From Lingula anatina (taxonomy: Eukaryota > Animalia > Brachiopoda), in assembly GCA_051362555.1 (NCBI GenBank), contig CM120646.1, forward strand, positions 5,580,001 through 5,644,000: 64,000 nucleotides of DNA, read 5' to 3'. A model generated the notes under the pieces. That model was not told the origin of the DNA and did no database searches. It worked only from the letters and a program-made list of their open reading frames with translations. The position numbers were made by a program, and so were the translations under genes. This document shows positions 1 to 64,000 of the stretch, in pieces (positions within the stretch are counted from its first letter, which is position 1; each line of letters opens with the position of its first letter).

Positions 1-123
1 CATGACACATGAATAGAACAATGGTGACACTAAATACAACTGGTAAGAAGGGACAGACAGAGATAAGACAGCTTGACAGAAGTAAGCTTGAATATCTTGA
101 CATATTTGACATGGGGGATAAGG

Positions 124-131
124 TATAAAAG
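124..131 (+). promoter_or_regulatory. TATA box TATAAAAG, first of 37 copies (one per C unit; e.g. 1740, 3518, 5294, 6645, 63806)
   Basis: Exact TATAWAWR consensus (GGTATAAAAGC) with CA dinucleotides ~27-32 nt downstream (CCAGACAG). It lies 91 bp upstream of the first hairpin of each run and is retained in the diverged right-hand copies. Function is inferred. Confidence 0.55.
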
Positions 132-214
132 CAACTACACAGTAGAAACCAGACAGAAAGCTCTTGGATAAGAGCATAAGAACAGTCATGATGTAAGGTG
201 TGCATACATTTTGG

Positions 215-292
215 GCCATGATGTAGAATTGGCAGAAGATTGTGGCTGTGAATGTGACCAGTCATAATTTTATGTCAACATTACACCATGGT
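215..292 (+). ncRNA. Candidate pri-miRNA hairpin H1 (representative; one per A, B and C unit, ~230 copies estimated); predicted 5p AUUGGCAGAAGAUUGUGGCUG(U)
   Basis: Consensus GCCAUGAUGUAGA|AUUGGCAGAAGAUUGUGGCUG-UGAAUGUGAC-CAGUCACAAUUUUAUGUCAACAU|UACACCAUGGU. It has an ~11-bp lower stem, a 20-bp upper stem with G-U pairs and one G.A mismatch, a 10-nt loop, UGUG at the apical junction and CAGC (CNNC) at +17 (298-301). Folded by hand; cut sites are uncertain by 1-2 nt. Confidence 0.68.
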
Positions 293-337
293 ACAGACAG
301 CGTGAAAACACAAGTGAAGAAATAATCGAAGATTCAA

Positions 338-418
338 CCCACTGTATATTTTTGGCAATAAAGGAGTGGCTGGGGAATATAACACCAGTGCTTCTTTTTG
401 TCAAACCTGTTCAGTGGG
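338..418 (+). ncRNA. Candidate pri-miRNA hairpin H2 (representative; one per A unit, ~140 copies estimated); predicted 5p UUUGGCAAUAAAGGAGUGGCUG(G)
   Basis: CCCACUGUAUAUU|UUUGGCAAUAAAGGAGUGGCUGG-GGAAUAUAACA-CCAGUGCUUCUUUUUGUCAAACC|UGUUCAGUGGG. CCCACUG pairs with CAGUGGG at the base, flanks are 13 and 11 nt, the predicted pre-miRNA is 57 nt (351-407), and CCUC (CNNC) sits at +17 (424-427). Confidence 0.68.
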
Positions 419-1235
419 AAAAACCTCAAATAATGTAAAGAAATAGATGCAGATGGGATAAAAATTGGCCATGATGTAGAATTGGCAGAAGATTGTGGCT
501 GTGAATGTGATCAGTCGCAATTTTAAGTCAACATTACACCATGGTACAGACGGCGTTAAAAACAGTAGTGAAGAAATGTAAGAAGAAGATTCAACCCACT
601 GTATATTTTTGGCAATAAAGGAGTGGCTGGGGAATATAACACCAGTGCTTCTTTTTGTCAAACCTGTTCAGTGGGAAAAACCTCAAATAATATGAAGAAA
701 TTGATGCAGATGGAAAATAAATTTGGTCATGATGTAAAATTGGCAGAAGATTGTGGCTGTGAATGTGATCAGTCGCAATTTAAGTCAACATTACAACATG
801 GTATAGACGGCGTGAAAACAGAAGTGAAGAAATGTACGAAGAAGATTTAACCCCACTGTATATTTTTGGCAATAAAGGAGTGGCTGGGGAATATAACACC
901 AGTGCTTCTTTTTGTCAAACCTGTTCAGTGGGTAAAACCTCAAATAATGTGAAGAAATAGATGCAGATGGGATTAAAATTGGCCATGATGTAGAATTGGC
1001 AGAAGATTGTGGCTGTGAAACTGACCAGTCACAATTTTATGTCAACATTACACCATGGTACAGACAGCGTGAAAACAGAAGTGAAGATTTATTCGAAGAT
1101 TCAACCCACTGTATATTTTTGGCAATAAAGGAGTGGCTGGGGAATATAACACCAGTGCTTCTTTTTGTCAAACCTGTTCAGTGGGAAAAACCTCAAATAA
1201 TGTGAAGAAATAGATGCAGGTGGAAAACAAATTTG

Positions 1236-1313
1236 GTCATGATGTAAAATTGGCAGAAGATTGTGGCTGTGAAACTGACCAGTCACAATTTGATGTCAAC
1301 ATTACAACATGGT
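1236..1313 (+). ncRNA. H1 hairpin, B-unit variant (representative)
   Basis: Same 5' arm as H1. The flanks differ but still pair (GGUCAUG/CAUGGUC and UGUAA/UUACA), and the loop is UGAAACUGAC. Confidence 0.62.
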
Positions 1314-1392
1314 CAAGACAGCGTGAAAATACAATTGAAGACGAATCGAATGATGTTAAGAATTTGACACACGTTGGGAAAGATTATTTTAG

Positions 1393-1470
1393 GCCATGAT
1401 GTAGAATTGGCAGAAGATTGTGGCTGTTAAACTGATCAGTTGCAATTTCATGTCAATACTACACCAAAGT
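1393..1470 (+). ncRNA. H1 hairpin, terminal C-unit variant (representative)
   Basis: Same 5' arm. The 3' arm CAGUUGCAAUUUCAUGUCAAU still pairs via G-U and A-U, and UGUAG pairs with CUACA (G-C where other variants have G-U). The most basal pairs are weakened (CCAAAG). Confidence 0.55.
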
Positions 1471-1502
1471 CCAGTCAACAGCTTTGTTTGGTTTGTTGTA
1501 GG

Positions 1503-1508
1503 ATTAAA
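1503..1508 (+). terminator. Candidate polyadenylation signal ATTAAA after the last hairpin of each run (representative)
   Basis: ATTAAA is the common variant poly(A) hexamer. It lies ~35 nt after the C-unit hairpin, next to a GT-rich tract, in nearly all C units (ATTTAA at ~60128). Support is positional only. Confidence 0.3.
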
Positions 1509-1529
1509 CATTGTAAGATGATTAGTTTA

Positions 1530-1775
1530 CAGGTAGACAAGATAAAATCTTGATTGCAATCATAGCTGAGAAGTCACCTGTGGAAAGTCTACTACTTGGG
1601 CTGTGACAACTGTACACATGACACATGAATAGAACAATGGTGACACTAAATACAACTGGTAAGAAGGGACAGACAGAGAAAAGACAGCTTGACAGAAGTA
1701 AACTTGAATATCTTGACATATTTGACATGGGGGATGAGGTATAAAAGCAACTACACAGTAGAAACCAGACAGAAA
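1530..1775 (+). promoter_or_regulatory. Candidate Pol II promoter module in the unique part of unit C (representative)
   Basis: CAGGTAG at 1530, six same-strand TGACA at 1604, 1619, 1641, 1690, 1714 and 1723, AACAAT at 1633 (only some copies), and TATAAAAG at 1740. Confidence 0.45.
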
Positions 1776-4700
1776 GCTCTTGGATAAGAGCATAAGAACA
1801 GTCATGATGTAAGGTGTGCATAAATTTTGGGCCATGATGTAGAATTGGCAGAAGATTGTGGCTGTGAATGTGACCAGTCACAATTTTATGTCAACATTAC
1901 ACCATGGTACAGACAGCATGAAAACACAAGTGAAGAAATATTCAAAGATTCAACCCACTGTATATTTTTGGCAATAAAGGAGTGGCTGGGGAATATAACA
2001 CCAGTGCTTCTTTTTGTCAAACCTGTTCAGAGGGAAAAACCTCAAATAATGTGAAGAAATAGATGCAGATGGGATAAAAATTGGCCATGATGTAGAATTG
2101 GCAGAAGATTGTGGCTGTGAATGTGATCAGTCGCAATTTTAAGTCAACATTACAACATGGTACAGACGGCGTTAAAAACAGAAGTGAAGAAATGTACGAA
2201 GAAGATTTAACCCACTGTATATTTTTGGCAATAAAGGAGTGGCTGGGGAATATAACACCAGTGCTTCTTTTTGTCAAACCTGTTCAGTGGGAAAAACCTC
2301 AAATAATATGAAGAAATTGATGCAGATGTGATAAAAATTGGCCATGATGTAGAATTGGCAGAAGATTGTGGCTGTGAATGTGATCAGTCGCAATTCTAAG
2401 TCAACATTACAACATGGTACAGACGGCGTGAAAACAGAAATGAAGAAATGTACGAAGAAGATTTAACCCTACTGTATATTTTTGGCAATAAAGGAGTGGC
2501 TGGGGAATATAACACCAGTGCTTCTTTTTGTCAAACCTGTTCAGTGGGAAAAACCTCAAATAATATGAAGAAATTGATGCAGATGGAAAACAAATTTGGT
2601 CATGATGTAAAATTGGCAGAAGTTTGTGGCTGTGAAACTGAACAGTCACAATTTTATGTCAACATTACAACATGGTCAAGACAGCATGAAAATACAAGTG
2701 AAGACGAATCGAATGATGTTAAGAATTTGACACACATTGGGAAAGATTATTTTAGGCGATGATGTAGAATTGGCAGAAGATTGTGGCTGTGAATGTGATA
2801 AGTCGCAATTCTAAGTCAACATTACAACATGGTACAGACGGCGTGAAAACAGAAATGAAGAAATGTACGAAGAAGATTTAACCCTACTGTATATTTTTGG
2901 CAATAAAGGAGTGGCTGGGGAATATAACACCAGTGCTTCTTTTTGTCAAACCTGTTCAGTGGGAAAAACCTCAAATAATGTGAAGAAATAGATGCAGATG
3001 GAAAACAAATTTGGTCATGATGTAAAATTGGCAGAAGATTGTGGCTGTGAAACTGACCAGTCACAATTTGATGTCAACATTACAACATGGTCAAGACAGC
3101 GTGAAAATACAAGTGAAGACGAATCGAATGATGTTAAGAATTTGACACACGTTGGGAAAGATTATTTTAGGCCATGATGTAGAATTGGCAGAAGATTGTG
3201 GCTGTAAAACTGATCAGTTGCAATTTCATGTCAATACTACACCAAAGTCCAGTCAACAGCTTTGTTTGGTTTGTTGTAGGATTAAACATTGTAAGATGAT
3301 TAGTTTACAGGTAGACAAGATAAAATCTTGATTGCAATCATAGCTGAGAAGTCACCTGTGGAAAGTCTACTACTTGGGCTGTGACAACTGTACACATGAC
3401 ACATGAATAGAACAATGGTGACACTAAATACAACTGGTAAGAAGGGACAGACAGAGAAAAGACAGCTTGACAGAAGTAAACTTGAATATCTTGACATATT
3501 TGACATGGGGGATGAGGTATAAAAGCAACTACACAGTAGAAACCAGACAGAAAGCTCTTGGATAAGAGCATAAGAACAGTCATGATGTAAGGTGTGCATA
3601 AATTTTGGGCCATGATGTAGAATTGGCAGAAGATTGTGGCTGTGAATGTGACCAGTCACAATTTTATGTCAACATTACACCATGGTACAGACAGCATGAA
3701 AACACAAGTGAAGAAATATTCAAAGATTCAACCCACTGTATATTTTTGGCAATAAAGGAGTGGCTGGGGAATATAACACCAGTGCTTCTTTTTGTCAAAC
3801 CTGTTCAGAGGGAAAAACCTCAAATAATGTGAAGAAATAGATGCAGATGGGATAAAAATTGGCCATGATGTAGAATTGGCAGAAGATTGTGGCTGTGAAT
3901 GTGATCAGTCGCAATTTTAAGTCAACATTACAACATGGTACAGACGGCGTTAAAAACAGAAGTGAAGAAATGTACGAAGAAGATTTAACCCACTGTATAT
4001 TTTTGGCAATAAAGGAGTGGCTGGGGAATATAACACCAGTGCTTCTTTTTGTCAAACCTGTTCAGTGGGAAAAACCTCAAATAATATGAAGAAATTGATG
4101 CAGATGTGATAAAAATTGGCCATGATGTAGAATTGGCAGAAGATTGTGGCTGTGAATGTGATCAGTCGCAATTCTAAGTCAACATTACAACATGGTACAG
4201 ACGGCGTGAAAACAGAAATGAAGAAATGTACGAAGAAGATTTAACCCTACTGTATATTTTTGGCAATAAAGGAGTGGCTGGGGAATATAACACCAGTGCT
4301 TCTTTTTGTCAAACCTGTTCAGTGGGAAAAACCTCAAATAATATGAAGAAATTGATGCAGATGGAAAACAAATTTGGTCATGATGTAAAATTGGCAGAAG
4401 TTTGTGGCTGTGAAACTGAACAGTCACAATTTTATGTCAACATTACAACATGGTCAAGACAGCATGAAAATACAAGTGAAGACGAATCGAATGATGTTAA
4501 GAATTTGACACACATTGGGAAAGATTATTTTAGGCCATGATGTAGAATTGGCAGAAGATTGTGGCTGTGAATGTGATAAGTCGCAATTCTAAGTCAACAT
4601 TACAACATGGTACAGACGGCGTGAAAACAGAAATGAAGAAATGTACGAAGAAGATTTAACCCTACTGTATATTTTTGGCAATAAAGGAGTGGCTGGGGAA

Positions 4701-7700
4701 TATAACACCAGTGCTTCTTTTTGTCAAACCTGTTCAGTGGGAAAAACCTCAAATAATGTGAAGAAATAGATGCAGATGGAAAACAAATTTGGTCATGATG
4801 TAAAATTGGCAGAAGATTGTGGCTGTGAAACTGACCAGTCACAATTTGATGTCAACATTACAACATGGTCAAGACAGCGTGAAAATACAAGTGAAGACGA
4901 ATCGAATGATGTTAAGAATTTGACACACGTTGGGAAAGATTATTTTAGGCCATGATGTAGAATTGGCAGAAGATTGTGGCTGTAAAACTGATCAGTTGCA
5001 ATTTCATGTCAATACTACACCAAAGTCCAGTCAACAGCTTTGTTTGGTTTGTTGTAGGATTAAACATTGTAAGATGATTAGTTTACAGGTAGACAAGATA
5101 AAATCTTGATTGCAATCATAGCTGAGAAGTCACCTGTGGAAAGTCTACTACTTGGGCTGTGACAACTGTACACATGACACATGAATAGAACAAGGGTGAC
5201 ACTAAATACAACTGGTAAGAATGGACAGACAGATAAGACAGCTTGACAGAAGTAAACTTGAATATCTTGACATATTTGACATGGGGGATAAGGTATAAAA
5301 GCAACTACACAGTAGAAACCAGACAGAAAGCTCTTGGATAAGAGCATAAGAACAGTCATGATGTAAGGTGTGCATACATTTTGGGCCATGATGTAGAATT
5401 GGCAGAAGATTGTGGCTGTGAATGTGACCAGTCACAATTTTTTGTCAACATTACACCATGGTACAGACAGCGTGAAAACACAAGTGAAGAAATATTCAAC
5501 CCACTGTATATTTTTGGCAATAAAGGAGTGGCTGGGGAATATAACACCAGTGCTTCTTTTTGTCAAACCTGTTCAGTGGGAAAAACCTCAAATAATGTGA
5601 AGAAATAGATGCAGTTGGGATAAAAATTGGCCATGATGTAGGATTGGCAGAAGATTGTGGCTGTGAATGTGATCAGTCGCAATTTTAAGTCAACATTACA
5701 ACATGGTACAGACGGCGTTAAAAACAGTAGTGAAGAAATGTACGAAGAAGATTCAACCCACTGTATATTTTTGGCAATAAAGGAGTGGCTGGGGAATATA
5801 ACACCAGTGCTTCTTTTTGTCAAACCTGTTCAGTGGGAAAAACCTCAAATAATATGAAGAAATTGATGCAGATGGAAAATAAATTTGGTCATGATGTAAA
5901 ATTGGCAGAAGATTGTGGCTGTGAATGTGATCAGTCGCAATTTAAGTCAACATTACAACATGGTATAGACAGCGTGAAAACACAAGTGAAGATTTATTCG
6001 AAGATTCAACCCACTGTATATTTTTGGCAATAAAGGAGTGGCTGGGGAATATAACACCAGTGCTTCTTTTTGTCAAACCTGTTCAGTGGGAAAAACCTCA
6101 AATAATGTGAAGAAATAGATGCAGATGGAAAACAAATTTGGTCATGATGTAAAATTGGCAGAAGATTGTGGCTGTGAAACTGACCAGTCACAATTTGATG
6201 TCAACATTACAACATGGTCAAGACAGCGTGAAAATACAAGTGAAGGCGAATCGAATGATGTTAAGAATTTGACACACGTTGGGAAAGATTATTTTAGGCC
6301 ATGATGTAGAATTGGCAGAAGATTGTGGCTGTAAAACTGATCAGTTGCAATTTCATGTCAATACTACACCAAAGTCCAGTCAACAGCTTTGTTTGGTTTG
6401 TTGTAGGATTAAACATTGTAAGATGATTAGTTTACAGGTAGACAAGATAAAATCTTGATTGCAATCATAGCTGAGAAGTCACCTGTGGAAAGTCTACTAC
6501 TTGGGCTGTGACAACTGTACACATGACACATGAATAGAACAATGGTGACACTAAATATAACTGGTAAGAAGGGACAGACAGAGATAAGACAGCTTGACAG
6601 AAGTAAACTTGAATATCTTGACATATTTGACATGTGGGATAAGGTATAAAAGCAACTACACAGTAGAAACCAGACAGAAAGCTCTTGGACAAGAGCATAA
6701 GAACAGTCATGATGTAAGGTGTACATAAATTTTGGGCCATGATATAGAATTGGCAGAAGATTGTGGCTGTGAATGTGACCAGTCACAATTTTAAGTCAAC
6801 ATTACACCATGGTACAGACAGCGTGAAAACACAAGTGAAGATTTATTCGAAGATTCAACCCACTGTATATTTTTGGCAATAAAGGAGTGGCTGGGGAATA
6901 TAACACCAGTGCTTCTTTTTGTCAAACCTGTTCAGTGGGAAAAACCTCAAATAATGTGAAGAAATAGATGCAGATGGGATAAAAATTGGCCATGATGTAG
7001 AATTGGCAGAAGATTGTGGCTGTGAATGTGATCAGTCGCAATTTTAAGTCAACATTACAACATGGTACAGACAGCGTGAAAACAGAAGTGAAGAAATGTA
7101 CGAAGAAGATTTAACCCACTGTATATTTTTGGCAATAAAGGAGTGGCTGTGGAATATAACACCAGTGCTTCTTTTTGTCAAACCTGTTCAGTGGGAAAAA
7201 CCTCAAATAATGTGAAGAAATTGATGCAGATGGAAAACAAATTTGGTCATGATGTAAAATTGGCAAAAGATTGTGGCTGTGAAACTGACCAGTCACAATT
7301 TTATGTCAACATTACAACATGGTCAAGACAGCGTGAAAATACGAGTGAAGACGAATCGAATGATGTTAAGAATTTGACACACGTTGGGAAAGATTATTTT
7401 AGGCCATAATGTAGAATTGGCAGAAGATTGTGGCTGTAAAACTGATCAGTTGCAATTTCATGTCAATACTACACCAAAGTCCAGTCAACAGCTTTGTTTG
7501 GTTTGTTGTAGGATTAAACATTGTAAGATGATTAGTTTACAGGTAGACAAGATAAAATCTTGATTGCAATCATAGCTGAGAAGTCACCTGTGGAAAGTCT
7601 ACTACTTGGGCTGTGACAACTGTACACATGACACATGAATAGAACAATGGTGACACTAAATACAACTGGTAAGAAGGGACAGACAGAGATAAGACAGCTT

Positions 7701-25700: not shown

Positions 25701-27316
25701 CATGGTACAGACGGCGTGAAAACAGTAGTGAAGAAATGTACGAAGAAGATTCAACCCACTGTATATTTTTGGCAATAAAGGAGTGGCTGGGGAATATAAC
25801 ACCAGTGCTTCTTTTTGTCAAACCTGTTCAGTGGGAAAAACCTCAAATAATATGAAGAAATTGATGCAGATGGAAAACAAATTTGGTCATGATGTAAAAT
25901 TGGCAGAAGTTTGTGGCTGTGAAACTGAACAGTCACAATTTTATGTCAACATTACAACATGGTCAAAACAGCATGAAAATACAAGTGAAGACGAATCGAA
26001 TGATGTTAAGAATTTGACACACATTGGGAAAGATTATTTTAGGCCATGATGTAGAATTGGCAGAAGATTGTGGCTGTAAAACTGATCAGTCACAATTTTA
26101 TGTCAACATTACACCATGGTACAGACAGCGTGAAAACACAAGTGAAGAAATATTCAAAGATTCATCCCACTGTATATTTTTGGCAATAAAGGAGTGGCTG
26201 GGGAATATAACACCAGTGCTTCTTTTTGTCAAACCTGTTCAGTGGGAAAAACCTCAAATAATGTGAAGAAATAGATGCAGATGGAAAACAAATTTGGTCA
26301 TGATGTAAAATTGGCAGAAGATTGTGGCTGTGAAACTGACCAGTCACAATTTGATGTCAACATTACAACATGGTCAAGACAGCGTGAAAATACAAGTGAA
26401 GACGAATCGAATGATGTTAAGAATTTGACACACTTTGGGAAAGATTATTTTAGGCCATGATGTAGAATTGGCAGAAGATTGTGGCTGTAAAACTGATCAG
26501 TTGCAATTTCATGTCAATACTACACCAAAGTCCAGTCAACAGCTTTGTTTGGTTTGTTGTAGGATTAAACATTGTAAGATGATTAGTTTACAGGTAGACA
26601 AGATAAAATCTTGATTGCAATCATAGCTGAGAAGTCACCTGTGGAAAGTCTACTACTTGGGCTGTGACAACTGTACACATGACACATGAATAGAACAAGG
26701 GTGACACTAAATACAACTGGTAAGAATGGACAGACAGAGATAAGACAGCTTGACAGAAGTAAACTTGAATATCTTGACATATTTGACATGGGGGATGAGG
26801 TATAAAAGCAACTACACAGTAGAAACCAGACAGAAAGCTCTTGGATAAGAGCATAAGAACAGTCATGATGTAAGATGTGCATAAATTTTGGACCATGATG
26901 TAGAATTGGCAGAAGATTGTGGCTGTGAATGTGACCAGTCACAATTTTATGTCAACATTACACCATGGTACAGACAGCGTGAAAACACAAGTGAAGAAAT
27001 ATTCAAAGATTCAACCCACTGTATATTTTTGGCAATAAAGGAGTGGCTGGGGAATATAACACCAGTGCTTTTTTTTTGTCAAACCTGTTCAGTGGGAAAA
27101 ACCTCAAATAATGTGAAGAAATAGATGCAGATGGGATAACAAGGCAGCAAAGCTGTCAAATGTACAGACAAAAACCAGAAAATAAAAACGCAGGAAATAG
27201 GATACTGTCAATTCTGATGAACTAATGTATTATGCTTACTGTAACTGCATAGCCAACATCAAATTCTTATTCTGCATAACATTGGATTAGGATGAAAGTA
27301 AAATGTGTATCAAGCA

Positions 27317-27541
27317 TTAGACTAAGTTCCCATACCTAAATCAATCTAACAGGATCAATGCAACTCCAAGGGGTTTCTCACTAAATTGCTTTCAGTTTGA
27401 GAGTCTTAGGATTCTGGCATGCCAGTTTCAGAAGGCGTGACAGACAACTAAGCCACTTACATTGATTGCAATTTAGCGAGAATTCCCATGGAGATAGATC
27501 GATCCACAGTTAGCGTGATAGGGTCTGGAAATAGTCCCTAA
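27317..27541. mobile_element. Decayed MITE-like foldback nested in the HINE
   Basis: CTCCAAGGGGTTTCTCACTAAATTGC (27364-27389) matches the reverse complement of 27468-27493 at 22/26. Similarity extends outward with indels to ~70-bp arms. A central palindrome CTGGCATGCCAG lies at 27415-27426. Confidence 0.55.
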
Positions 27542-27627
27542 GGTGTCAGGCTGATAAGAGTTAAACTTTGGAAATGCCAGAATGAGGTACAGTGAAAATC
27601 ACACACAAAAAAATTGCTTAAACTCAT

Positions 27628-27682
27628 TAAAAAAAAAAATATATATATATATATATGTATATATTATTAATTTTTTTTTTTT
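27628..27682. repeat. poly(A)-(TA)n-poly(T) low-complexity tract
   Basis: An A-run, about nine AT dinucleotides and a T-run are directly visible. Confidence 0.9.
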
Positions 27683-29043
27683 GGGCTGTATGTCAATCCT
27701 AAGAATCATTCTTGTAACTTAACAAAATACAGAAAATGTTACAAAGTAAGAGTACAGGGCTCCTGGCAGATGGGAGTGATAAGTCACAACTTGAAAATGC
27801 CAGTATAGCACTCTATAAACCTGCATTGCCTCCAAAACAGAAAACAATCACACTGGTTTTCAAACACAAGCTGCGCACTTCTGTCTTATGAAACTTTTCA
27901 CTAAGTTTCAGTATCGTAAGTAACATGGTTTTCCCTTAATCGCTATCCTGGCAGCAGTGTCCAAAATAGGGTTTTCTTCAACTTTCATGCAATAAAACAT
28001 AATACTTAACAGCATAATGACCATCAAATTTTTTATAAAAAAATAAAAGTATCATGAAAATTCAGAAAATGTGATTTGGGAAGGTCTTCAAGGCCATGGA
28101 AGTTCAGAGTCACACTTTCAAAATGCCAAAATGTAAACAAGAGATAACTGTACTGAAATGATTTTCTTTCCATTTTCAACACCTTTTTTAAAACAAAATG
28201 ATCAATAAACTGTCATTTTTAAATGTTCAACTAGGAAAATATAGGAAAAATAGCAATAGAACAATTTTCAATGTCCAATTTGCTCCATTTGCAGATGCTG
28301 AACATAGTGAATGATTAAATCTGACAAACTGCAATGATGAGTTCCTTTCCATTTATGATACTTTATTACACAATGCACAATATTATAACAGGTTTACCGT
28401 CATTTTTATATAATCAACAAACAATATTGTTAAGAAGCAGAAAATGTCAAAACAACACTTTTACATATCTTATTAGTTCCATAATGAGACTGTTAACATG
28501 CCTAAGAATTAAATCTGAAGAAATAACAATTATATACAAAAATACAGAAAATGCACAGCACTTCTGGTGGATGGGAGTATAAAATCACATCTTGAAGATG
28601 CTTGTGTTTGAAAAATAATTTTAAAAAATTTTTAAATAAAACGTAAAAAATTCCAATAAAGCTGCTATTCAAACTTTTAATCTAGCTGTATTAACTTGAT
28701 ATTAATAACCCCACCAAGTTTGAGAAAAATAAAGCACTGTTATTCATCTATAGCATGTTGGCATAACACAATCTTTTTGTTGTAAATTTATTTGCAATGT
28801 TAAATACCATTTATCTGCACAATTATCACCAAATCCTAATTTTGTGACACAGTTAAGAGAGCTAAACCTATGGGACTTTACAGGGAAATCTCAAGGAGTG
28901 TTTTATGTAATCTCATTTAATGGCCAATTGAAAATTAATGAGTAGGCAAGTGACTTTATAGACCTTAATTTAATTAGTGATCACCCAAGGGACAATTTTA
29001 TAGACTAGCTGCCATCCATACAGTACCATCATATAGCACAAAG

Positions 29044-29706
29044 GTGTTGCATACATGCTGAAAAAAGTGAAAAAAACAGCATAACTTCCCTAAAAATGAC
29101 CCGATGATGCTGATTTTCAAACTTGACCTGCGTATTATGAATATTCATTAGTTCTGCAAGTTTCAAACCAAAAGGTAAAATGGTTTTCCACTTATCATGT
29201 TATCAGTGTTGCATATATGCTGAAAAAAGTGAAAAACAGCATAACTTCCCTAAAAATGACCCAATCATACTGATTTTCAAACTTGACCTGCGTATTATGA
29301 ATATTCATCAGTTCTGTAAGTTTGAAACCAAAAGGTAAAATGGTTTTCCACTTATCGTGTTATCGGTGCTGCATATATGCTGAAAAAAGTGAAAAAACAG
29401 CATAACTACCCTAAAAATGACCCATTCATGCTGATTTTCGAACTTGACCTGCGTAATATGAATATTCATTAGTTCTGCAAGTTTCAAGCCAAAAGGTAAA
29501 ATGATTTTTCACTTATCATGTTATCAGTGTTGCATATATGGTGAAAAAAGTGAAAAACAGCATAACTTCCCTAAAAATGACCCGATCATGCTGATTTTCG
29601 AACTTGACCTGCGTATTATGAATATTCATCAGTTTTGTAAGTTTCAAGGGAAAAGGTAAAATGGTTTTCCACTTATCGTGTTATCGGTGCTGCATATATG
29701 CTGAAA
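29044..29706. repeat. HINE internal tandem repeat block 1, four ~161-bp monomers
   Basis: G(C/G)TGAAA...CAGCATAACTTCCCTAAAAATGACCC...AACTTGACCTGCGTATTATGAATATTC recurs from 29057, 29219, 29379 and 29540, ending at ~29700. Confidence 0.95.
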
Positions 29707-30098
29707 CAAGACAGCACTGTTCTGCAATGGGTTTACTTCCATTTTTAAAACACTTTTTTAACATAAAACAAAATAAACAGTTTTCTACCATTTGTATATG
29801 ATCAACTAAGAAAATTGATGAGATGGGAAAAATATCAATAGAACAGTGTTAAATGTCCAATTTCCTCCATTCTGAGATAATGAATATAGTAGATGATTGA
29901 ATCTGCCAAACTGCAATAATATTTATTTCCATTTTTGACACTTTATAACATAATGCACAATAACAAGTTTACCATCATTTTTACATAATCAACTAACAAT
30001 GTTATTAAGATGCAGGAAATGTCAAACAAACACTTTTACGTATCTTATTAGTTCAATAATGAGACTGTTAATATGCCTAACAATTGAATCTGAGGAAA

Positions 30099-31044
30099 TG
30101 TGAAAAAACAGCATAACTTCTAAAAGAATGGCCCAATTATGCTGATTTTGGAACTCAACTTGCGTTTTAGTTAGTTTGACTACTCCTGTGAGTATAATGA
30201 CAATTGGCCTATCTGTTTTTCTTATATTGTGTTATAAGCGTTGCATATATGTTGAAAGAAGTGAAAAAACAGCATAACATCCCTAAAAATGGCCCGATCA
30301 TGCTGATTTTCAAACTTGACCTGCGTAATTTGAATATTCATCAGTTTTATAAGTTTCAAGCCAAAAGGTAAAATGATTTTCCATTTATGGTGTTATCGGT
30401 GCTGCATATATGCTGAAAAAAGAGAAAAAATAGCCTAAATTCACTAAAAATGATCCAATCACGCTGATTTTCGAACTTGACCTGCGTATTATGAATATTC
30501 ATCAGTTCTGTAAGTTTCAAGTCAAAAGGTAAAATGGTTTTCCACTTATCGTGTTATCGGTGCTGCATATATGCTGAAAAAAGTGAAAAAACAGCATAAA
30601 TTCCCTAAAAGTGACCCGATCATGCTGATTTTCGAACTTGACCTGCGTATTATGAATATTCATCAGTTCTGTAAGTTTCAAGTCAAAAGGTAAAATGGTT
30701 TTCCACTTATCGTGTTATCGGTGCTGCATACATGCTGAAAAAAGTGAAAAAACAGCATAAATTCCCTAAAAGTAACCCGATTATGCTGATTTTCGAACTT
30801 GACCTGCGTATTATGAATATTCATCAGTTCTGTAAGTTTCAAGTCAAAAGGTAAAATGGTTTTCCACTTATCGTGTTATCGGTGCTGCATATATGCTGAA
30901 AAAAGTGAAAAAACAGCATAAATTCCCTAAAAGCGACCCGATCATGCTGATTTTCGAACTTGACCTGCGTATTATGAATATTCATCAGTTCTGCAAGTTT
31001 CAAGTCAAAAGGTAAAATGGTTTTCCACTTATCGTGTTATCGGT
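30099..31044. repeat. HINE internal tandem repeat block 2, about six 161-bp monomers (first degenerate, last truncated)
   Basis: Monomer starts at 30251, 30412, 30573, 30734 and 30895, with a period of 161. Confidence 0.95.
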
Positions 31045-31050
31045 AAAAGT

Positions 31051-31099
31051 GCACGGCGACGGCAACGGCGACGACGGCGACGACAGACGCAGATGATGG
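31051..31099. repeat. Cryptic (GAC/GGC)n microsatellite next to the HINE terminal hairpin
   Basis: GCACGGCGACGGCAACGGCGACGACGGCGACGACAGACGCAGATGATGG. This position is typical of HINE/DINE-1-like elements. Confidence 0.85.
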
Positions 31100-31133
31100 C
31101 AATATGTACAGACACATCTGTGTCTGTACATAA

Positions 31134-55100: not shown

Positions 55101-58100
55101 GCTGAGGAATATAACACCAGTGCTTCTTTTTGTCAAAACTGTTCAGTGGGAAAAACCTCAAATAATATGAAGAAATTGATGCAGATGGAAAATAAATTTG
55201 GTCATGATGTAAAATTGGCAGAAGATTGTGGCTGTGAATGTGATCAGTCGCAATTTTAAGTCAACATTACAACATGGTATAGACGGCGTGAAAACAGAAG
55301 TGAAGAAATGTACGAAGAAGATTTAACCCACTGTATATTTTTGGCAATAAAGGAGTGGCTGGGGAATATAACACCAGTGCTTCTTTTTGTCAAACCTGTT
55401 CAGTGGGTAAAACCTCAAATAATGTGAAGAAATAGATGCAGATGGGATTAAAATTGGCCATGATGTAGAATTGGCAGAAGATTGTGGCTGTGAAACTGAC
55501 CAGTCACAATTTTATGTCAACATTACACCATGGTACAGACAGCGTGAAAACACAAGTGAAGAAATATTCGAAGATTCAACCCACTGTATATTTTTGGCAA
55601 TAAAGGAGTGGCTGGGGAATATAACACCAGTGCTTCTTTTTGTCAAACCTGTTCAGTGGGAAAAACCTCAAATAATGTGAAGAAATAGATGCAGATGGAA
55701 AACAAATTTGGTCATGATGTAAAATTGGCAGAAGATTGTGGCTGTGAAACTGACCAGTCACAATTTGATGTCAACATTACAACATGGTCAAGACAGCGTG
55801 AAAATACAAGTGAAGACGAATCGAATGATGTTAAGAATTTGACACACGTTGGGAAAGATTATTTTAGGCCATGATGTAGAATTGGCAGAAGATTGTGGCT
55901 GTAAAACTGATCAGTTGCAATTTCATGTCAATACTACACCAAAGTCCAGTCAACAGCTTTGTTTGGTTTGTTGTAGGATTAAACATTGTAAGATGATTAG
56001 TTTACAGGTAGACAAGATAAAATCTTGATTGCAATCATAGCTGAGAAGTCACCTGTGGAAAGTCTACTACTTGGGCTGTGACAACTGTACACATGACACA
56101 TGAATAGAACAAGGGTGACACTAAATACAACTGGTAAGAATGGACAGACAGAGATAAGACAGCTTGACAGAAGTAAACTTGAATATCTTGACATATTTGA
56201 CATGGGGGATGAGGTATAAAAGCAACTACACAGTAGAAACCAGACAGAAAGCTCTTGGATAAGAGCATGAGAACAGTCATGATGTAAGGTGTGCATAAAT
56301 TTTGGGCCATGATGTAGAATTGGCAGAAGATTGTGGCTGTGAATGTGACCAGTCACAATTTTATGTCAACATTACACCATGGTACAGACAGCGTGAAAAC
56401 ACAAGTGAAGAAATATTCAAAGATTCAACCCACTGTATATTTTTGGCAATAAAGGAGTGGCTGGGGAATATAACACCAGTGCTTCTTTTTGTCAAACCTG
56501 TTCAGTGGGAAAAACCTCAAATAATGTGAAGAAATAGATGCAGATGGGATAAAAATTGGCCATGATGTAGAATTGGCAGAAGATTGTGGCTGTGAATGTG
56601 ATCAGTCGCAATTTTAAGTCAACATTACAACATGGTACAGACGGCGTTAAAAACAGAAGTGAAGAAATGTACGAAGAAGATTTAACCCACTGTATATTTT
56701 TGGCAATAAAGGAGTGGCTGGGGAATATAACACCAGTGCTTCTTTTTGTCAAACCTGTTCAGTGGGAAAAACCTCAAATAATATGAAGAAATTGATGCAG
56801 ATGGGATAAAAATTGGCCATGATGTAGAATTGGCAGAAGATTGTGGCTGTGAATGTGATCAGTCGCAATTTTAAGTCAACATTACAACATGGTACAGACG
56901 GCGTGAAAACAGAAGTGAAGAAATGTACGAAGAAGATTTAACCCCACTGTATATTTTTGGCAATAAAGGAGTGGCTGGGGAATATAACACCAGTGCTTCT
57001 TTTTGTCAAACCTGTTCAGTGGGAAAAACCTCAAATAATATGAAGAAATTGATGCAGATGGAAAACAAATTTGGTCATGATGTAAAATTGGCAGAAGATT
57101 GTGGCTGTGAATGTGATCAGTCGCAATTTTAAGTCAACATTACAACATGGTACAGACGGCGTGAAAACAGAAGTGAAGAAATGTACGAAGAAGATTTAAC
57201 CCACTGTATATTTTTGGCAATAAAGGAGTGGCTGGGGAATATAACACCAGTGCTTCTTTTTGTCAAACCTGTTCAGTGGGTAAAACCTCAAATAATGTGA
57301 AGAAATAGATGCAGATGGGATTAAAATTGGCCATGATGTAGAATTGGCAGAAGATTGTGGCTGTGAAACTGACCATTCACAATTTTATGTCAACATTACA
57401 ACATGGTCAAGACAGCATGAAAATACAAGTGAAGACGAATCGAATGATGTTAAGAATTTGACACACATTGGGAAAGATTATTTTAGGCCATGATGTAGAA
57501 TTGGCAGAAGATTGTGGCTGTAAAACTGATCAGTCACAATTTTATGTCAACATTACACCATGGTACAGACAGCGTGAAAACACAAGTGAAGAAATATTCG
57601 AAGATTCAACCCACTGTATATTTTTGGCAATAAAGGAGTCGCAGGGGAATATAACACCAGTGCTTCTTTTTGTCAAACCTGTTCAGTGGGAAAAACCTCA
57701 AATAATGTGAAGAAATAGATGCAGATGGAAAACAAATTTGGTCATGATGTAAAATTGGCAGAAGATTGTGGCTGTGAAACTGACCAGTAACAATTTGATG
57801 TCAACATTACAACATGGTCAAGACAGCGTGAAAATACAAGTGAAGACGAATTGAATGATGTTAAGAATTTGACACACATTGGGAAAGATTATTTTAGGCC
57901 ATGATGTAGAATTGGCAGAAGATTGTGGCTGTAAAACTGATCAGTCGCAATTGTCAACATTACACCATGTCAACATTACACCATGGTACAGACAGCGTGA
58001 AAACACAAGTGAAGAAATATTCAAAGATTCAACCCACTGTATATTTTTGGCAATAAAGGAGTGGCTGGGGAATATAACACCAGTGCTTCTTTTTGTCAAA

Positions 58101-61100
58101 CCTGTTCAGTGGGAAAAAGCTCCAATAATGCGAAGAAATAGATGCAGATGGAAAACAAATTTGGTCATGATGTAAAATTGGCAGAAGATTGTGGCTGTGA
58201 AACTGACCAGTCACAATTTGATGTCAACATTACAACATGGTCAAGACAGCGTGAAAATACAAGTGAAGACGAATCGAATGATGTTAAGAATTTGACACAC
58301 GTTGGGAAAGATTATTTTAGGCCATGATGTAGAATTGGCAGAAGATTGTGGCTGTAAAACTGATCAGTTGCAATTTCATGTCAATACTACACCAAAGTCC
58401 AGTCAACAGCTTTGTTTGGTTTGTTGTAGGATTAAACATTGTAAGATGATTAGTTTACAGGTAGACAAGATAAAATCTTGATTGCAATCATAGCTGAGAA
58501 GTCACCTGTGGAAAGTCTACTACTTGGGCTGTGACAACTGTACACATGACACATGAATAGAACAATGGTGACACTAAATACAACTGGTAAGAAGGGACAG
58601 ACAGAGATAAGACAGCTTGACAGAAGTAAGCTTGAATATCTTGACATATTTGACATGTGGGATAAGGTATAAAAGCAACTACACAGTAGAAACAGACAGA
58701 AAGCTCTTGGATAAGAGCATAAGAACAGTCATGATGTAAGGTGTGCATAAATTTTGGGCCATGATGTAGTATTGGCAGAAGATTGTGGCTGTGAATGTGA
58801 CCAGGCACAATTTTATGTCAACATTACACCATGGTACAGACAGCGTGAAAACACAATTGAAGAATTATTCGAAGATTCAACCCACTGTATATTTTTGGCA
58901 ATAAAGGAGTGGCTGGGGAATATTACACCAGCGCTTCTTTTTGTCAAACCTGTTCGGTGGGAAAAACCTCCAATAATGTGAAGAAATAGCTGCAGAAGGG
59001 AAAAAATGGCCATGATGTAGAATTGGCAGAAGATTGTGGCTGTGAATGTGATCAGTCGCAATTTTATGTCAACATTACAACATGGTATAGACAGCGTGAA
59101 AAAAGAAGTGAAGAAATGTACGAAGAAGATTAACCCACTGTATATTTTTGGCAATAAAGGAGTGGCTGGGGAATATAACACCAGTGCTTCTTTTTGTCAA
59201 ACCTGCTCAGTGGGAAAAACCTCCAATAATGCGAAGAAATAGATGCAGATGGAAAACAAATTTAATCTTGATGTAAAATTGGCAGAAGATTGTGGCTGTG
59301 AAACTGACCAGTCACAATTTTATGTCAACATTACAACATGGCAAAGACAGCGTGAAAATACAAGTGAAGACGAAAAGAATAATGTTAAGAATTTGACACA
59401 CATTGGAAAAAATTTATTTTAGGCCATGATGTAGAATTGGCAGAAGATTGTGGCTGTAAAACTGATCAGTTACAATTTCATGTCAAAACTACACCAAAGT
59501 ACAGTCAACAGTTTTGTTTGGTTTGTTGTAGGATTAAACACTGTAAGATGATTAGTTTACAGGTAGACAAGATAAAATCTTGATTGCAATCATAGCTGAG
59601 AAGTCACCTGTGGAAAGTCTACTACTTGGGCTGTGACAACTGTACACATGACACATGAATAGAACAAGGGTGACACTAAATACAACTGGTAAGAATGGAC
59701 AGACAGAGATAAGACAGCTTGACAGAAGTAAGCTTGAATATCTTGACATATTTGACATGTGGGATAAGGTATAAAAGCAACTACACAGTAGAAACCAGAC
59801 AGAAAGCTCTTGGATAATAGCATAACAACAGTCATGATGTAAGGTGTGCATAAATTTTGGGCCATGTTGTAGAACTGGCAGAAGATTGTGGCTGTGAATG
59901 TGATCAGTCACAATTTTATGTCAACATTACAACATGGTATAGACAGCGTGAAAATACAAATGAAGACGAAAAGAATGATGTTAAGAATTTGACACACATT
60001 GGGAAAGATTATTTTAGGCCATGATGTAGAATTGGCAGAAGATTGTGGCTGTAAAACTGATCAGTTGCAATTTCATGTCAATACTACACCAAAGTCCAGT
60101 CAACAGCTTTGTTTGGTTTGTTGTAGGATTTAACACTGTAAGATGATTAGTTTACAGGTAGACAAGATAAAATCTTGATTGCAATTATAGCTGAGAAGTC
60201 ACCTGTGGAAAGTCTACTACTTGGGCTGTGACAACTATACACATGACACATGAATAGAACAATGGTGACACTAAATACAACTGGTAAGAAGGGACAGACA
60301 GATAAGACAGCTTGACAGAAGTAAGCTTGAATATCTTGACATATTTGACATGTGGGATAAGGTATAAAAGCAACTACACAGTAGAAACCAGAGAGAAAGC
60401 TCTTGGATAAGAGCATAACAACAGTCATGATGTAAGGTGTGCATAAATTTTGGGCCATGATGTAGAATTGGCAGAAGATTGTGGCTGTGAATGTGATCAG
60501 TCACAATTTTATGTCAACATTACACCATGGTATAGACAGCTTGAAAACAGAAGTGAAGATATGTACGAAAAAGAATACACCGACAGAATATTTTTGGCAA
60601 TAAAGGAGTGGCTGGGGAATATTACACCAGCGCTTCTTTTTGTCAAACCTGTTCAGTGAGAAAAACCTCCAATAATGCCAAGAAATTGATGTAGATGGAA
60701 AACAAATTTGGTCATGATGTAAAATTGGCAAAAGATTGTGGCTGTGAAACTGACCAGTCGCGATTTTATGTCAACATTGCACCATGGTATAGACAGCGTG
60801 AACACATAAGTGAAGAAATATTCGAAGATTTAATCCACTGTATATTTTTGGCAATAAAGGAGTGGCTGGGGAATATAACACCAGTGCTTCTTTTTGTCAA
60901 ACCTGTTCAGTGGGAAAAACCTCCAATAATGCGAAGAAATAGCTGCAGATGGAAAAAATGGCCATGATGTAGAATTGGCAAGAAATGCGAAGAAATAGAT
61001 GCAGATGGAAAACAAATTTGGTCTTGATGTAAAATTGGCAGAAGATTGTGGCTGTGAATGTGACCAGTCACAATTTTATGTCAACATTACACCATGGTAT

Positions 61101-64000
61101 AGACAGCTTGAAAACAGAAGTGAAGATATATACGAAAAAGAATACACCGACAGAATATTTTTGGCAATAAAGGAGTGGCTGGGGAATATAACACCAGTGC
61201 TTCTTTTTGTCAAACCTGTTCAGTGGGAAAAACCTCCAATAATGTGAAGAAATAGCTGAAGATGGAAAAAATGGCCATGATGTAGAATTGGCAGAAGATT
61301 GTGGCTGTGAATGTGATCAGTCGCAATTTTATGTCAACATTACACCATGGTATAGACAGCTTTAAAACAGAAGTGAAGAAATGTACGAAGAAGATTTAAC
61401 CCACTGTATATTTTTGGCAATAAAGGAGTGGCTGGGGAATATAACACCAGTGCTTCTTTTTGTCAAACCTGCTCAGTGGGAAAAATCTCCAATAATGCGA
61501 AGAAATAGATGCAGATGGAAAACAAATTTGGTCTTGATGTAAAATTGGCAGAAGATTGTGGCTGTATATTTTTGGCAATAAAGGAGTGGCTGGGGAATAT
61601 AACACCAGTGCTTCTTTTTGTCAATCCTGCTCAGTGGGAAAAATCTCCAATAATGCGAAGAAATAGATGCAGATGGAAAACAAATTTGGTCTTGATGTAA
61701 AATTGGCAGAAGATTGTGGCTGTGAAACTGACCAGTCACAATTTTATGTCAACAATACAACATGGTATAGACAGCGTGAAAAAAGAGGTGAAGAAATGTA
61801 CGAAGAAGATTAACCCACTGTATATTTTTGGCAATAAAGGAGTGGCTGGGGAATATAACACCAGTGCATCTTTTTGTCAAACCTGCTCAGTGGGAAAAAC
61901 CTCCAATAATGCGAAGAAATAGATGCACATGGAAAAAAAATTCGGTCTTGATGTAAAATTGGCAGAAGATTGTGGCTGTGAAACTGACCAGTCACAATTT
62001 TATGTCAACATTACAACATGGCAAAGACAGCGTGAAAATACAAGTGAAGACGAAACGAATGATGTTAAGAATTTGACACACATTGGGAAAGATTATTTTA
62101 GGCCATGATGTAGAATTGGCAGAAGATTGTGGCTGTAAAACTGATCAGTTGCAATTTCATGTCAATACTACACCAAAGTCCAGTCAACAGCTTTGTTTGG
62201 TTTGTTGTAGGATTAAACACTGTAAGATGATAAGTTTACAGGTAGACAAGATAAAATCTTGATTGCAATTATAGCTGAGAAGTCACCTGTGGAAAGTCTA
62301 CTACTTGGGCTGTGACAACTGTACACATGACACATGAATAGAACAATGGTGACACTAAATACAACTGGTAAGAATGGACAGACAGAGATAAGACAGCTTG
62401 ACAGAAGTAAGCTTGAATATCTTGACATATTGGACATGGGGGATGAGGTATAAAAGCAACTACACAGTAGAAACCAGACAGAAAGCTCTTGGATAAGAGC
62501 ATAACAACAGTCATGATGTAAGGTGTGCATAAATTGTGGGCCATGATGTAGAATTGGCAGAAGATTGTGGCTGTGAATGTGCCCAGTCACAATTTTATGT
62601 CAACATTACACCATGGTACAGACAGCGTGAAAACAGAAGTGAAGAAATGTATGAAGAAGATTACACCCATTGTATATTTTTGGCAATAAAGGAGTGGCTG
62701 GGGAATATAACACCAGCGCTTCTTTTTGTCAAACCTGTCCAGTGGGAAAAACCTCCAATAATGTGAAGAAATAGCTGAAGATGGAAAAAATGGCCATGAT
62801 GTAGAATTGGCAGAAGATTGTGGCTGTGAATGTGATCAGTCGCAATTTTATGTCAACATTACAACATGGTACAGACGGCGTGAAAAAAGAAGTGAAGAAA
62901 TGTACGAAGAAGATTAACCCACTGTATATTTTTGGCAATAAAGGAGTGGCTGGGGAATATAACACCAGTGCTTCTTTTTGTCAAACCTGCTCAGTGGGAA
63001 AAATCTCCAATAATGCGAAGAAATAGATGCAGATGGAAAAAATGGCCATGATGTAGAATTGGCAGAAGATTGTGGCTGTGAATGTGATCAGTCGCAATTT
63101 TATGTCAACATTACAACATGGTATAGACAGCGTGAAAAAAGAAGTGAAGAAATGTACGAAGAAGATTAACCCACTGTATATTTTTGGCAATAAAGGAGTG
63201 GCTGGGGAATATAGCACCAGCGCTTCTTTTTGTCAAACCTGCTCAGTGGGAAAAACCTCCAATAATGCGAAGAAATAGATGCAGATGGAAAACAAATTTG
63301 GTCTTGATGTAAAATTGGCAGAAGATTGTGGCTGTGAAACTGACCAGTCACAATTTTATGTCAACATTACAACATGGCAAAGACAGCGTGAAAATACAAG
63401 TGAAGACGAAAAGAATGATGTTAAGAATTTGACACACATTGGAAAAAATTTATTTTAGGCCATGATGTAGAATTGGCAGAAGATTGTGGCTGTAAAACTG
63501 ACCAGTTGCAATTTCATGTCAAAACTACACCAAAGTCCAGTCAACAGCTTTGTTTGGTTTGTTGTAGGATTAAACACTGTAAGATGATTAGTTTACAGGT
63601 AGACAAGATAAAATCTTGATTGCAATCATAGCTCAGAAGTCACCTGTGGAAAGTCTACTACTTGGGCTGTGACAACTGTACACATGACACATGAATAGAA
63701 CAACGGTGACACTAAATACAACTGGTAAGAATGGACAGACAGAGATAAGACAGCTTGACAGAAGTAAGCTTGAATATCTTGACATATTTGACATGGGGGA
63801 TAAGGTATAAAAGCAACTACACAGTAGAAACCAGACAGAAAGCTCTTGGATAAGAGCAAAACAACAGTCATGATGTAAGGTGTGCATAAATTTTGGGCCG
63901 TGATGTAGAATTGGCAGAAGATTGTGGCTGTGAATGTGATCAGTCGCAATTTTATGTCAACATTACAACATGGTACAGACAGCGTAAAAAATGAAGTGAA
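31134..64000 (+). repeat. Modular tandem array, right part (same A/B/C units), running off the window end
   Basis: Resumes at AAAATTGGCCATGATG, exactly where the left part was interrupted. It contains 18 further C units, and copies are more diverged beyond ~58100. Confidence 0.98.

Follow-up and report, generated by a model that had tools for sequence, protein, structure and literature searches.

The DNA analyzed here is a stretch of 64,000 nucleotides (nt) from the brachiopod Lingula anatina (GenBank assembly GCA_051362555.1, contig CM120646.1, positions 5,580,001 to 5,644,000 of the forward strand), referred to below as the window. It holds a tandem array of modules headed by TATA boxes and filled with copies of two short hairpins, types A and B, which look like microRNA precursors and carry TTGGCA (UUGGCA in RNA) on their predicted 5p arms. 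A first-pass annotation had proposed a multi-promoter microRNA locus built like that of zebrafish miR-430. The features of the array are as follows, with positions counted from the first letter of the window.

1..64000, plus strand: tandem array continuing beyond both window ends; its 37 modules, each headed by a promoter, hold 229 A and 140 B hairpins.
124..131, plus strand: TATA box of module 1, TATAAAAG, the same in 37/37 modules; others at 1740, 3518 ... 63806.
150..155, plus strand: predicted initiation region, with CA dinucleotides at +27 and +31 nt from the TATA T.
215..292, plus strand: first copy of the type-A hairpin (predicted precursor, 228-281).
228..249, plus strand: mature A 5p arm (predicted), ATTGGCAGAAGATTGTGGCTGT, unchanged in 213/229 copies.
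298..301, plus strand: CNNC motif of A, with both C's fixed and the middle letters variable.
338..418, plus strand: first copy of the type-B hairpin (predicted precursor, 351-407).
351..372, plus strand: mature B 5p arm (predicted), TTTGGCAATAAAGGAGTGGCTG, unchanged in 136/140 copies.
424..427, plus strand: CNNC motif of B, 17 nt past the predicted 3' cut.
1392..1479, plus strand: terminal subtype of hairpin A, with an unchanged 5p arm, a diverged 3p arm and flank, and the CNNC retained at 1476-1479.
1480..1770, plus strand: inter-module spacer and promoter, with ATTAAA at 1503, six TGACA motifs at 1604-1727, and the TATA box at 1740.

The TATA-box motif occurs 37 times on the plus strand of the window and never on the minus strand, and TTGGCA is found 371 times on the plus strand versus 3 times on the minus strand. 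With a fuzzy search for the arms, we counted 369 hairpins, all on the plus strand. Each module runs from the promoter through (AB)n, usually AA, to an ATTAAA block; there are 36 such blocks against 37 promoters, each located 238 to 240 nt upstream of the next TATA motif. The modules contain between 2 and 23 hairpins (median, 10), giving 5.8 hairpins and 0.58 promoters per kb. In module 1, the first stem begins at 215, 91 nt past the TATA T at 124, and this spacing recurs in 35/37 modules. The 37 TATA modules, the 350 to 400 hairpins, and the 91-bp promoter-to-hairpin spacing of the first-pass annotation were thus borne out. As a refinement, the tandem modules are split by a transposon-like insertion of about 4 kb.

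Exact internal duplications reach 3,887 nt and point to recent unequal exchange. Part of them could be assembly artifacts, but the hairpins comprise 62 distinct sequences for A and 32 for B. Modules at 58600-64000 diverge more from the rest, and hairpins near 60975 and 61550 are truncated or fused; the rising divergence suggests that the array edge lies to the right of the window. Long exact duplications are also a sign of satellite-like turnover. Together with the lack of an Rfam family match, they suit an explanation in which the array is a satellite, the silenced relic of an old hairpin, or a source of PIWI-interacting RNA or endogenous small interfering RNA without canonical microRNA output. 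We consider this improbable in view of the folding of the hairpins and the variation among them.

All 369 copies were folded and compared with shuffled sequences, with a threshold of z < -2. On the plus strand, 368/369 hairpins fell below it, with a mean z of -5.7 for A (228/229 copies below -2) and -5.9 for B (140/140). Folding of the minus strand was weaker (mean z, -2.5 for A and -2.0 for B), and 11 control windows from the spacer and promoter ranged from -1.4 to +2.4. The comparison with shuffles proposed in the earlier annotation therefore separates the hairpins, which lie well below the shuffled controls on the plus strand, from the spacers, which do not. A single loop was found in 368/369 hairpins, and the predicted precursors measure 54 nt (A) and 57 nt (B). 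Canonical precursors are single imperfect hairpins of roughly 55 to 60 nt with long paired arms and a loop of at least 8 nt, and both predicted precursors agree with the canonical size and shape for Drosha and Dicer. The predicted B guide includes a canonical AATAAA (e.g., 357-362) in 137 B copies, which would be buried in the stem.

To examine the processing geometry, the Drosha cut was set before the base preceding TTGGCA, and the 3' cut was taken from the fold of each copy with a 2-nt overhang. This allowed us to score 227 A and 137 B copies (one A and three B copies were dropped due to an unpaired anchor and one A copy due to the window edge). Counted from the predicted 3' Drosha cut, the CNNC motif of 222/227 A copies and of 132/137 B copies falls exactly on +17, against a background density in the window of 0.028 per position. 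The terminal A subtype retains this motif although its flank has otherwise diverged. The lower stem begins at -13 for 118/137 B copies and for 87/227 A copies, most of the remaining A copies pairing further out. MirGeneDB describes CNNC at 17 nt downstream and UGU where the 5p arm ends; UGU is present there in 227/227 scored A copies and in none of B.

Variation among the copies bears on the satellite explanation, as a plain satellite should vary without regard to RNA structure or strand. This is not what we observed. In the 216 A copies that are colinear (another 13 carry indels and were left out), common variants, defined as those at 5% or more, occur at 0/22 sites of the 5p arm, 4/10 sites of the loop, and 6/22 sites of the 3p arm. 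The 5p arm differs from the loop and 3p arm combined (0/22 versus 10/32 variable sites; P = 0.003 [by Fisher's test]) and stem-breaking changes are underrepresented among common variants (6/150 possible versus 11/90; P = 0.02), both P values being only indicative, as the copies share history and are not independent. In A, the predicted mature arm is more conserved than the star arm and loop. The seed is intact in 366/369 hairpin copies. An alignment of five A and four B copies gave a common fold with 27 pairs, 8 of them changed at both partners; the seed stem, with its G-U pair, is retained in 9/9 aligned copies. Because they share this fold with compensatory changes, A and B are likely paralogues. 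Variation that avoids the 5p arm and spares pairing, the intact seed, the CNNC kept next to a diverged flank, and poly(A) reads without hairpins in three RNA sequencing runs (see below) all argue against a satellite or relic. Judged by their sequences, the hairpins look like selected microRNA precursors, and we are highly confident that the locus is a real microRNA mega-array.

Each module would be transcribed from its own TATA box. The spacing from the TATA box that places the predicted initiation region is canonical, and the promoter activity of the TATA modules is inferred from these motifs. A Sox-like site at 1631-1640 is found in only 10/36 modules. The promoter carries TTGACAGAAG at 1689-1698, one letter off the start of the A 5p arm, and the leader repeats CATGATGTA, found in the A lower stem; the promoter may be partly derived from decayed hairpins. 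The leader at 182-205 looks like miR-2013, a likeness judged to be due to chance, with no strong hairpin there (z = -1.3).

Nine long-RNA runs under the same species label were considered. Eight were mapped (X1 to X8, with 6 to 26% of each run read) and X9 was left out; the samples are coded and carry no tissue labels. Over positions 1430-2085, we found 42 reads in X1 (among 12.4 million records), 21 in X2, 2 in X7, and 0 in X4 (which lacked a control). Over positions 26490-27590, X3 gave the same pattern as X1 and X2, X5 had 0 reads on the array but 448 on the end of the transposon-like insertion, and X8 had about 2 array reads. The reads of X1 to X3 nearly all run in one direction and lie on the spacer, between about 1474 and 1760-1800. 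In this direction, spacer depth averaged 20.0 in X1, 9.6 in X2, and 12.3 in X3, whereas hairpin depth was 0 to 2, despite hairpins being 4 to 6 times more numerous than the spacer. In most stranded libraries, the first mate is antisense to the RNA; should that hold here, the signal is plus-strand poly(A) RNA that begins just past the last hairpin. Such hairpin-free spacer reads are the expected remnant of a primary transcript after hairpin excision. Six X1 molecules, possibly duplicates, end exactly at 1479, the last C of the CNNC of the terminal hairpin, 20 nt past the predicted Drosha cut. A host gene spliced to an acceptor around 1500 was considered and rejected, as there were no joints and reads reach upstream to 1479.

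The same reads pass through ATTAAA and continue for about 250 nt beyond it. The first-pass annotation had let the hairpin runs end near this hexamer; the 36 blocks do lie near module ends, but a poly(A) signal or transcript end there is unsupported, since reads run past it, although short RNAs ending at ATTAAA could have been missed for their small size. The poly(A) reads fade 15 to 50 nt past the TATAAA of the next promoter (1740-1800), as if the hexamer of that promoter, or the bound promoter itself, also ended the upstream transcript.

The spacer reads of X1 to X3 also overlap a minus-strand reading frame of 99 amino acids (1522-1821), which leads to another explanation, namely, that the repeat unit is a small protein-coding gene in the spacer, with the hairpins incidental. 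An ATG-initiated frame of at least this length arose in 1.35% of 2,000 shuffles, and the frame is intact in 31/36 modules. We nevertheless rejected the minus-strand frames as coding and regard this explanation as very unlikely: there are 19 nonsynonymous versus 4 synonymous variants, as expected without selection, 4/36 modules are out of register through indels, none of the four frames tested had a Pfam match, and read depth faded before the start codon.

Run X6 differs from X1 to X3. It covers the whole module in the opposite direction only, with depths of 14 (spacer), 56 (A), and 25 (B). Depth follows copy number, with no step at the TATA box, and demonstrates that hairpin reads are mappable. 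These reads are probably antisense. The array is thus transcribed in both directions, in different samples. Opposite-strand read-through and the transcription of both strands in some samples would also suit a satellite or relic. DNA contamination was ruled out as the origin of the array reads by their single direction. Several read variants agree with those of the rightmost modules, and the RNA reads are enriched for variants of 58600-64000. At 27024, 23/26 X6 reads carry a C found in only 2/140 B copies of the window, by which a G-U pair of the lower stem becomes G-C; this suggests another haplotype or a different section of the array as its source. The locus can be transcribed; an embryonic burst is not shown by the reads.

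The insertion that splits the array sits in an A-run, flanked by hairpin B and hairpin A, and has a 14-nt terminal palindrome.

27138..31132 (about), minus strand: nonautonomous Helentron-like element (HINE) of about 4 kb, with a terminal palindrome at 31103-31132, a GC microsatellite, and two arrays of 160- to 161-nt repeats.

In all four runs examined at its left end, this end proved to be a repeat that is common and transcribed. The direction bias of reads on this end is alike in X3 (544/94), X5 (217/74), and X6 (415/133), whereas X8 is unstranded (699/707). A 72-nt inverted repeat (72% complementary) lies inside the insertion at 27352-27505. The Helentron-associated Cg_HINE elements of oyster are described with a terminal palindrome, a microsatellite, and central arrays of ~160-nt repeats (PMC7492417). 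The likeness to the insertion is one of layout, and the insertion is a passenger in the array.

The seed UUGGCA on the predicted 5p arm of both hairpin types is that of miR-182 and miR-96. Moreover, the predicted B guide starts with TTTGGCAATA, identical to positions 1 to 10 of sea star and acorn worm miR-182 (supplement of PMC3247247); among the three files of this supplement, miR-182 alone shares the B start. By a hand estimate, the chance of a 5'-anchored 10-nt match is about 1 in 10,000 for two hairpins and the ~55 families listed. Identity with sea star miR-182 is 12/22 overall, with only 2/12 matches past position 10 (compared by eye). Amphioxus and oyster miR-182 carry the form UUGGCAC instead, and amphioxus miR-s11 starts like miR-96 but derives from the 3p arm. 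Seeds can also converge between microRNAs.

Searches for closer relatives found none in the material covered. Rfam gave 0 matches at the gathering score over the whole window, and at E values of up to 10 on 100-1800 it gave 17 weak shape matches far below threshold, none of them to the miR-182, miR-96, or miR-183 families. Similarity to the MIR-96 family does not extend over the full mature and precursor sequences, and no miR-183 or miR-96 paralogue was recognized in the window. Neither full arm occurs in the searched supplements of PMC3247247, PMC6943042, PMC2728532, PMC11521371 (12 of 13 files), and PMC4138081 (9 files, one partial), and six arm fragments of 15 to 16 nt matched the main texts of the literature only in unrelated places, taken as chance. 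A pattern scan of metagenomes gave at least 118 stretches, with one match in each of the 80 listed; blastn of module 1 and of the insertion against these stretches found no match at an E value of 0.01.

From the shared start of B, we think it probable that the hairpins descend from a miR-182-like gene. The locus may thus be an amplified and diverged gene of the MIR-96 family rather than a wholly new gene; we do not assign it to that family. The seed is different from that of miR-430, as first annotated, but it is a known seed rather than a new one.

As to function, we lean slightly toward a TATA-driven polycistronic array whose output, a burst of two 5p guides sharing one seed, would come around the time of genome activation, largely by analogy with zebrafish. 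RNA polymerase II would start about 30 nt past each TATA box, Drosha would cut just before the base preceding TTGGCA, and Dicer would free a 22-nt 5p guide, with A and B providing two paralogous guides that would repress mRNAs bearing TGCCAA sites. Hundreds of copies with their own promoters could supply rapid output around zygotic genome activation, as in zebrafish miR-430, the output likely coming in the early embryo as a brief, massive burst. That the guides would clear maternal mRNA at this point is likewise an analogy. The ancestor, probably a miR-182-like gene, would have been duplicated into A and B, and the array would have been built and maintained by unequal crossing-over and homogenization.

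Several observations weigh against this proposal. Expression of the array was low or absent in the eight runs of unlabeled tissue, X6 reads the modules in the opposite direction only, and the spacer reads of X1 to X3 could be a separate short transcript. The basal UG, an optional motif located 14 nt upstream, is not present in the preferred register (A has GG and B has AC). It is present in 138/227 A copies if the cut is shifted one base earlier, which would alter the A seed, so the 5' end of A is uncertain by one base. B is nearly uniform throughout, and arm-specific selection is not demonstrable for it; for A, the shared history of the copies softens the tests of variation. Finally, the miR-183/96/182 family is normally sensory and not an early-embryo family (PMC3145563).

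The timing is also where a germline role competes with the proposed embryonic burst. A real microRNA mega-array could serve spermatogenesis or oocyte loading instead of zygotic genome activation, and all structural evidence fits this equally. Large, fast-evolving germline microRNA clusters exist. TGACA is the most enriched word of the spacer (6 versus 0.62 expected; corrected P of about 0.02), with 5 to 6 copies within 160 nt of the TATA box in 36/36 modules; we take it to be a TALE/TGIF-type motif. TGIF-type factors drive spermatocyte genes in flies, but TALE factors have a part in blastulae as well. A density of one TATA promoter per 1.7 kb is the hallmark described for minor-wave genome activation, and high expression was seen in 0/8 runs, whose tissues are unlabeled. 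On balance, we find a germline role rather unlikely.

The seed and the first 10 nt of B, which agree with ambulacrarian miR-182, raise a different prospect, in which the array amplifies an ancestral miR-182-type role in sensory, ciliated, or other somatic cells or in a larval stage. The miR-183/96/182 family is expressed in sensory cells across animals, from single copies within a few kb (PMC3145563). That the ancestral cluster manages with single copies makes hundreds of promoters hard to explain for a steady somatic task, and the 3' halves are unlike miR-182; such a role seems to us quite improbable.

Returning to the embryonic burst, a broader scenario can be offered tentatively: an invertebrate lineage may have independently built a miR-430-style transcription hub from a miR-182-derived gene, turning a sensory seed to the clearance of maternal mRNA, with antisense read-through accompanying silence in other tissues. 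If active in early embryos, the array would be an unrelated counterpart of the zebrafish miR-430 locus. A second locus of near-equal promoter density and unrelated seed would mean that early embryos select the architecture and not the seed. Maternal-clearance microRNAs and transcription bodies outside vertebrates, as well as the recruitment of an old tissue-specific microRNA by amplification, would then become directly testable. Even with a germline role, 369 precursors in 64 kb would make this an extreme microRNA locus. Such loci can hide as satellite DNA, with Rfam detecting nothing in the array.

In the literature covered (most subscription journals and bioRxiv supplements lay outside the search, as did MirGeneDB and miRBase), no array of this kind and seed was found to be described. 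The MIR-96 family (miR-182 along with miR-96 and miR-183) resembles the array in the seed on the 5p arm and in positions 1 to 10 of B and differs in the 3' halves and in forming one three-gene cluster, compared to hundreds of copies with internal promoters. The microRNA clusters that clear maternal mRNA in flies and vertebrates offer another comparison. Their seeds differ from that of the array, and no sequence relation was found; the fly cluster miR-309 is a small single cluster. These fly and vertebrate clusters are regarded as unrelated to each other (PMC10197650), so convergence has a precedent.

The closest likeness is to miR-430. Multi-promoter microRNA mega-loci are known from fishes, where their seed is AAGUGC; frogs have a related cluster. 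The fish miR-430 clusters were found with a repeat-clustering tool, in a survey whose available passages cover fishes and mammals (PMC10417697). According to one report, the zebrafish miR-430 contig holds 313 promoters in 577 kb, its unit consists of one promoter and two to three precursor triplets, and its TATA boxes are typical of minor-wave genes (10.1101/2021.08.09.455629). The array described here has the same kind of layout, with tandem units that each start with a TATA promoter and continue with repeated sets of precursors sharing a seed, and both loci look like satellites. It differs in its seed (UUGGCA versus AAGUGC), in having AB doublets of two precursor types rather than triplets, in its hairpin density (5.8 versus about 3.4 per kb), and in the arm of the guide, predicted to be 5p in the array and lying on the 3p arm in miR-430. 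AAGTGC occurs only once on the plus strand and twice on the minus strand of the window, and membership in the miR-430/427/302 group was rejected. What stands of the first annotation is the multi-promoter array of likely microRNA precursors with the seed UUGGCA and a layout like that of miR-430; the seed is a known one, and the reads lend no support to ATTAAA as the transcript end. The locus is like miR-430 in layout without being a member of its family, and the two are close in promoter density, at 0.58 per kb in the array and 0.54 per kb in zebrafish.

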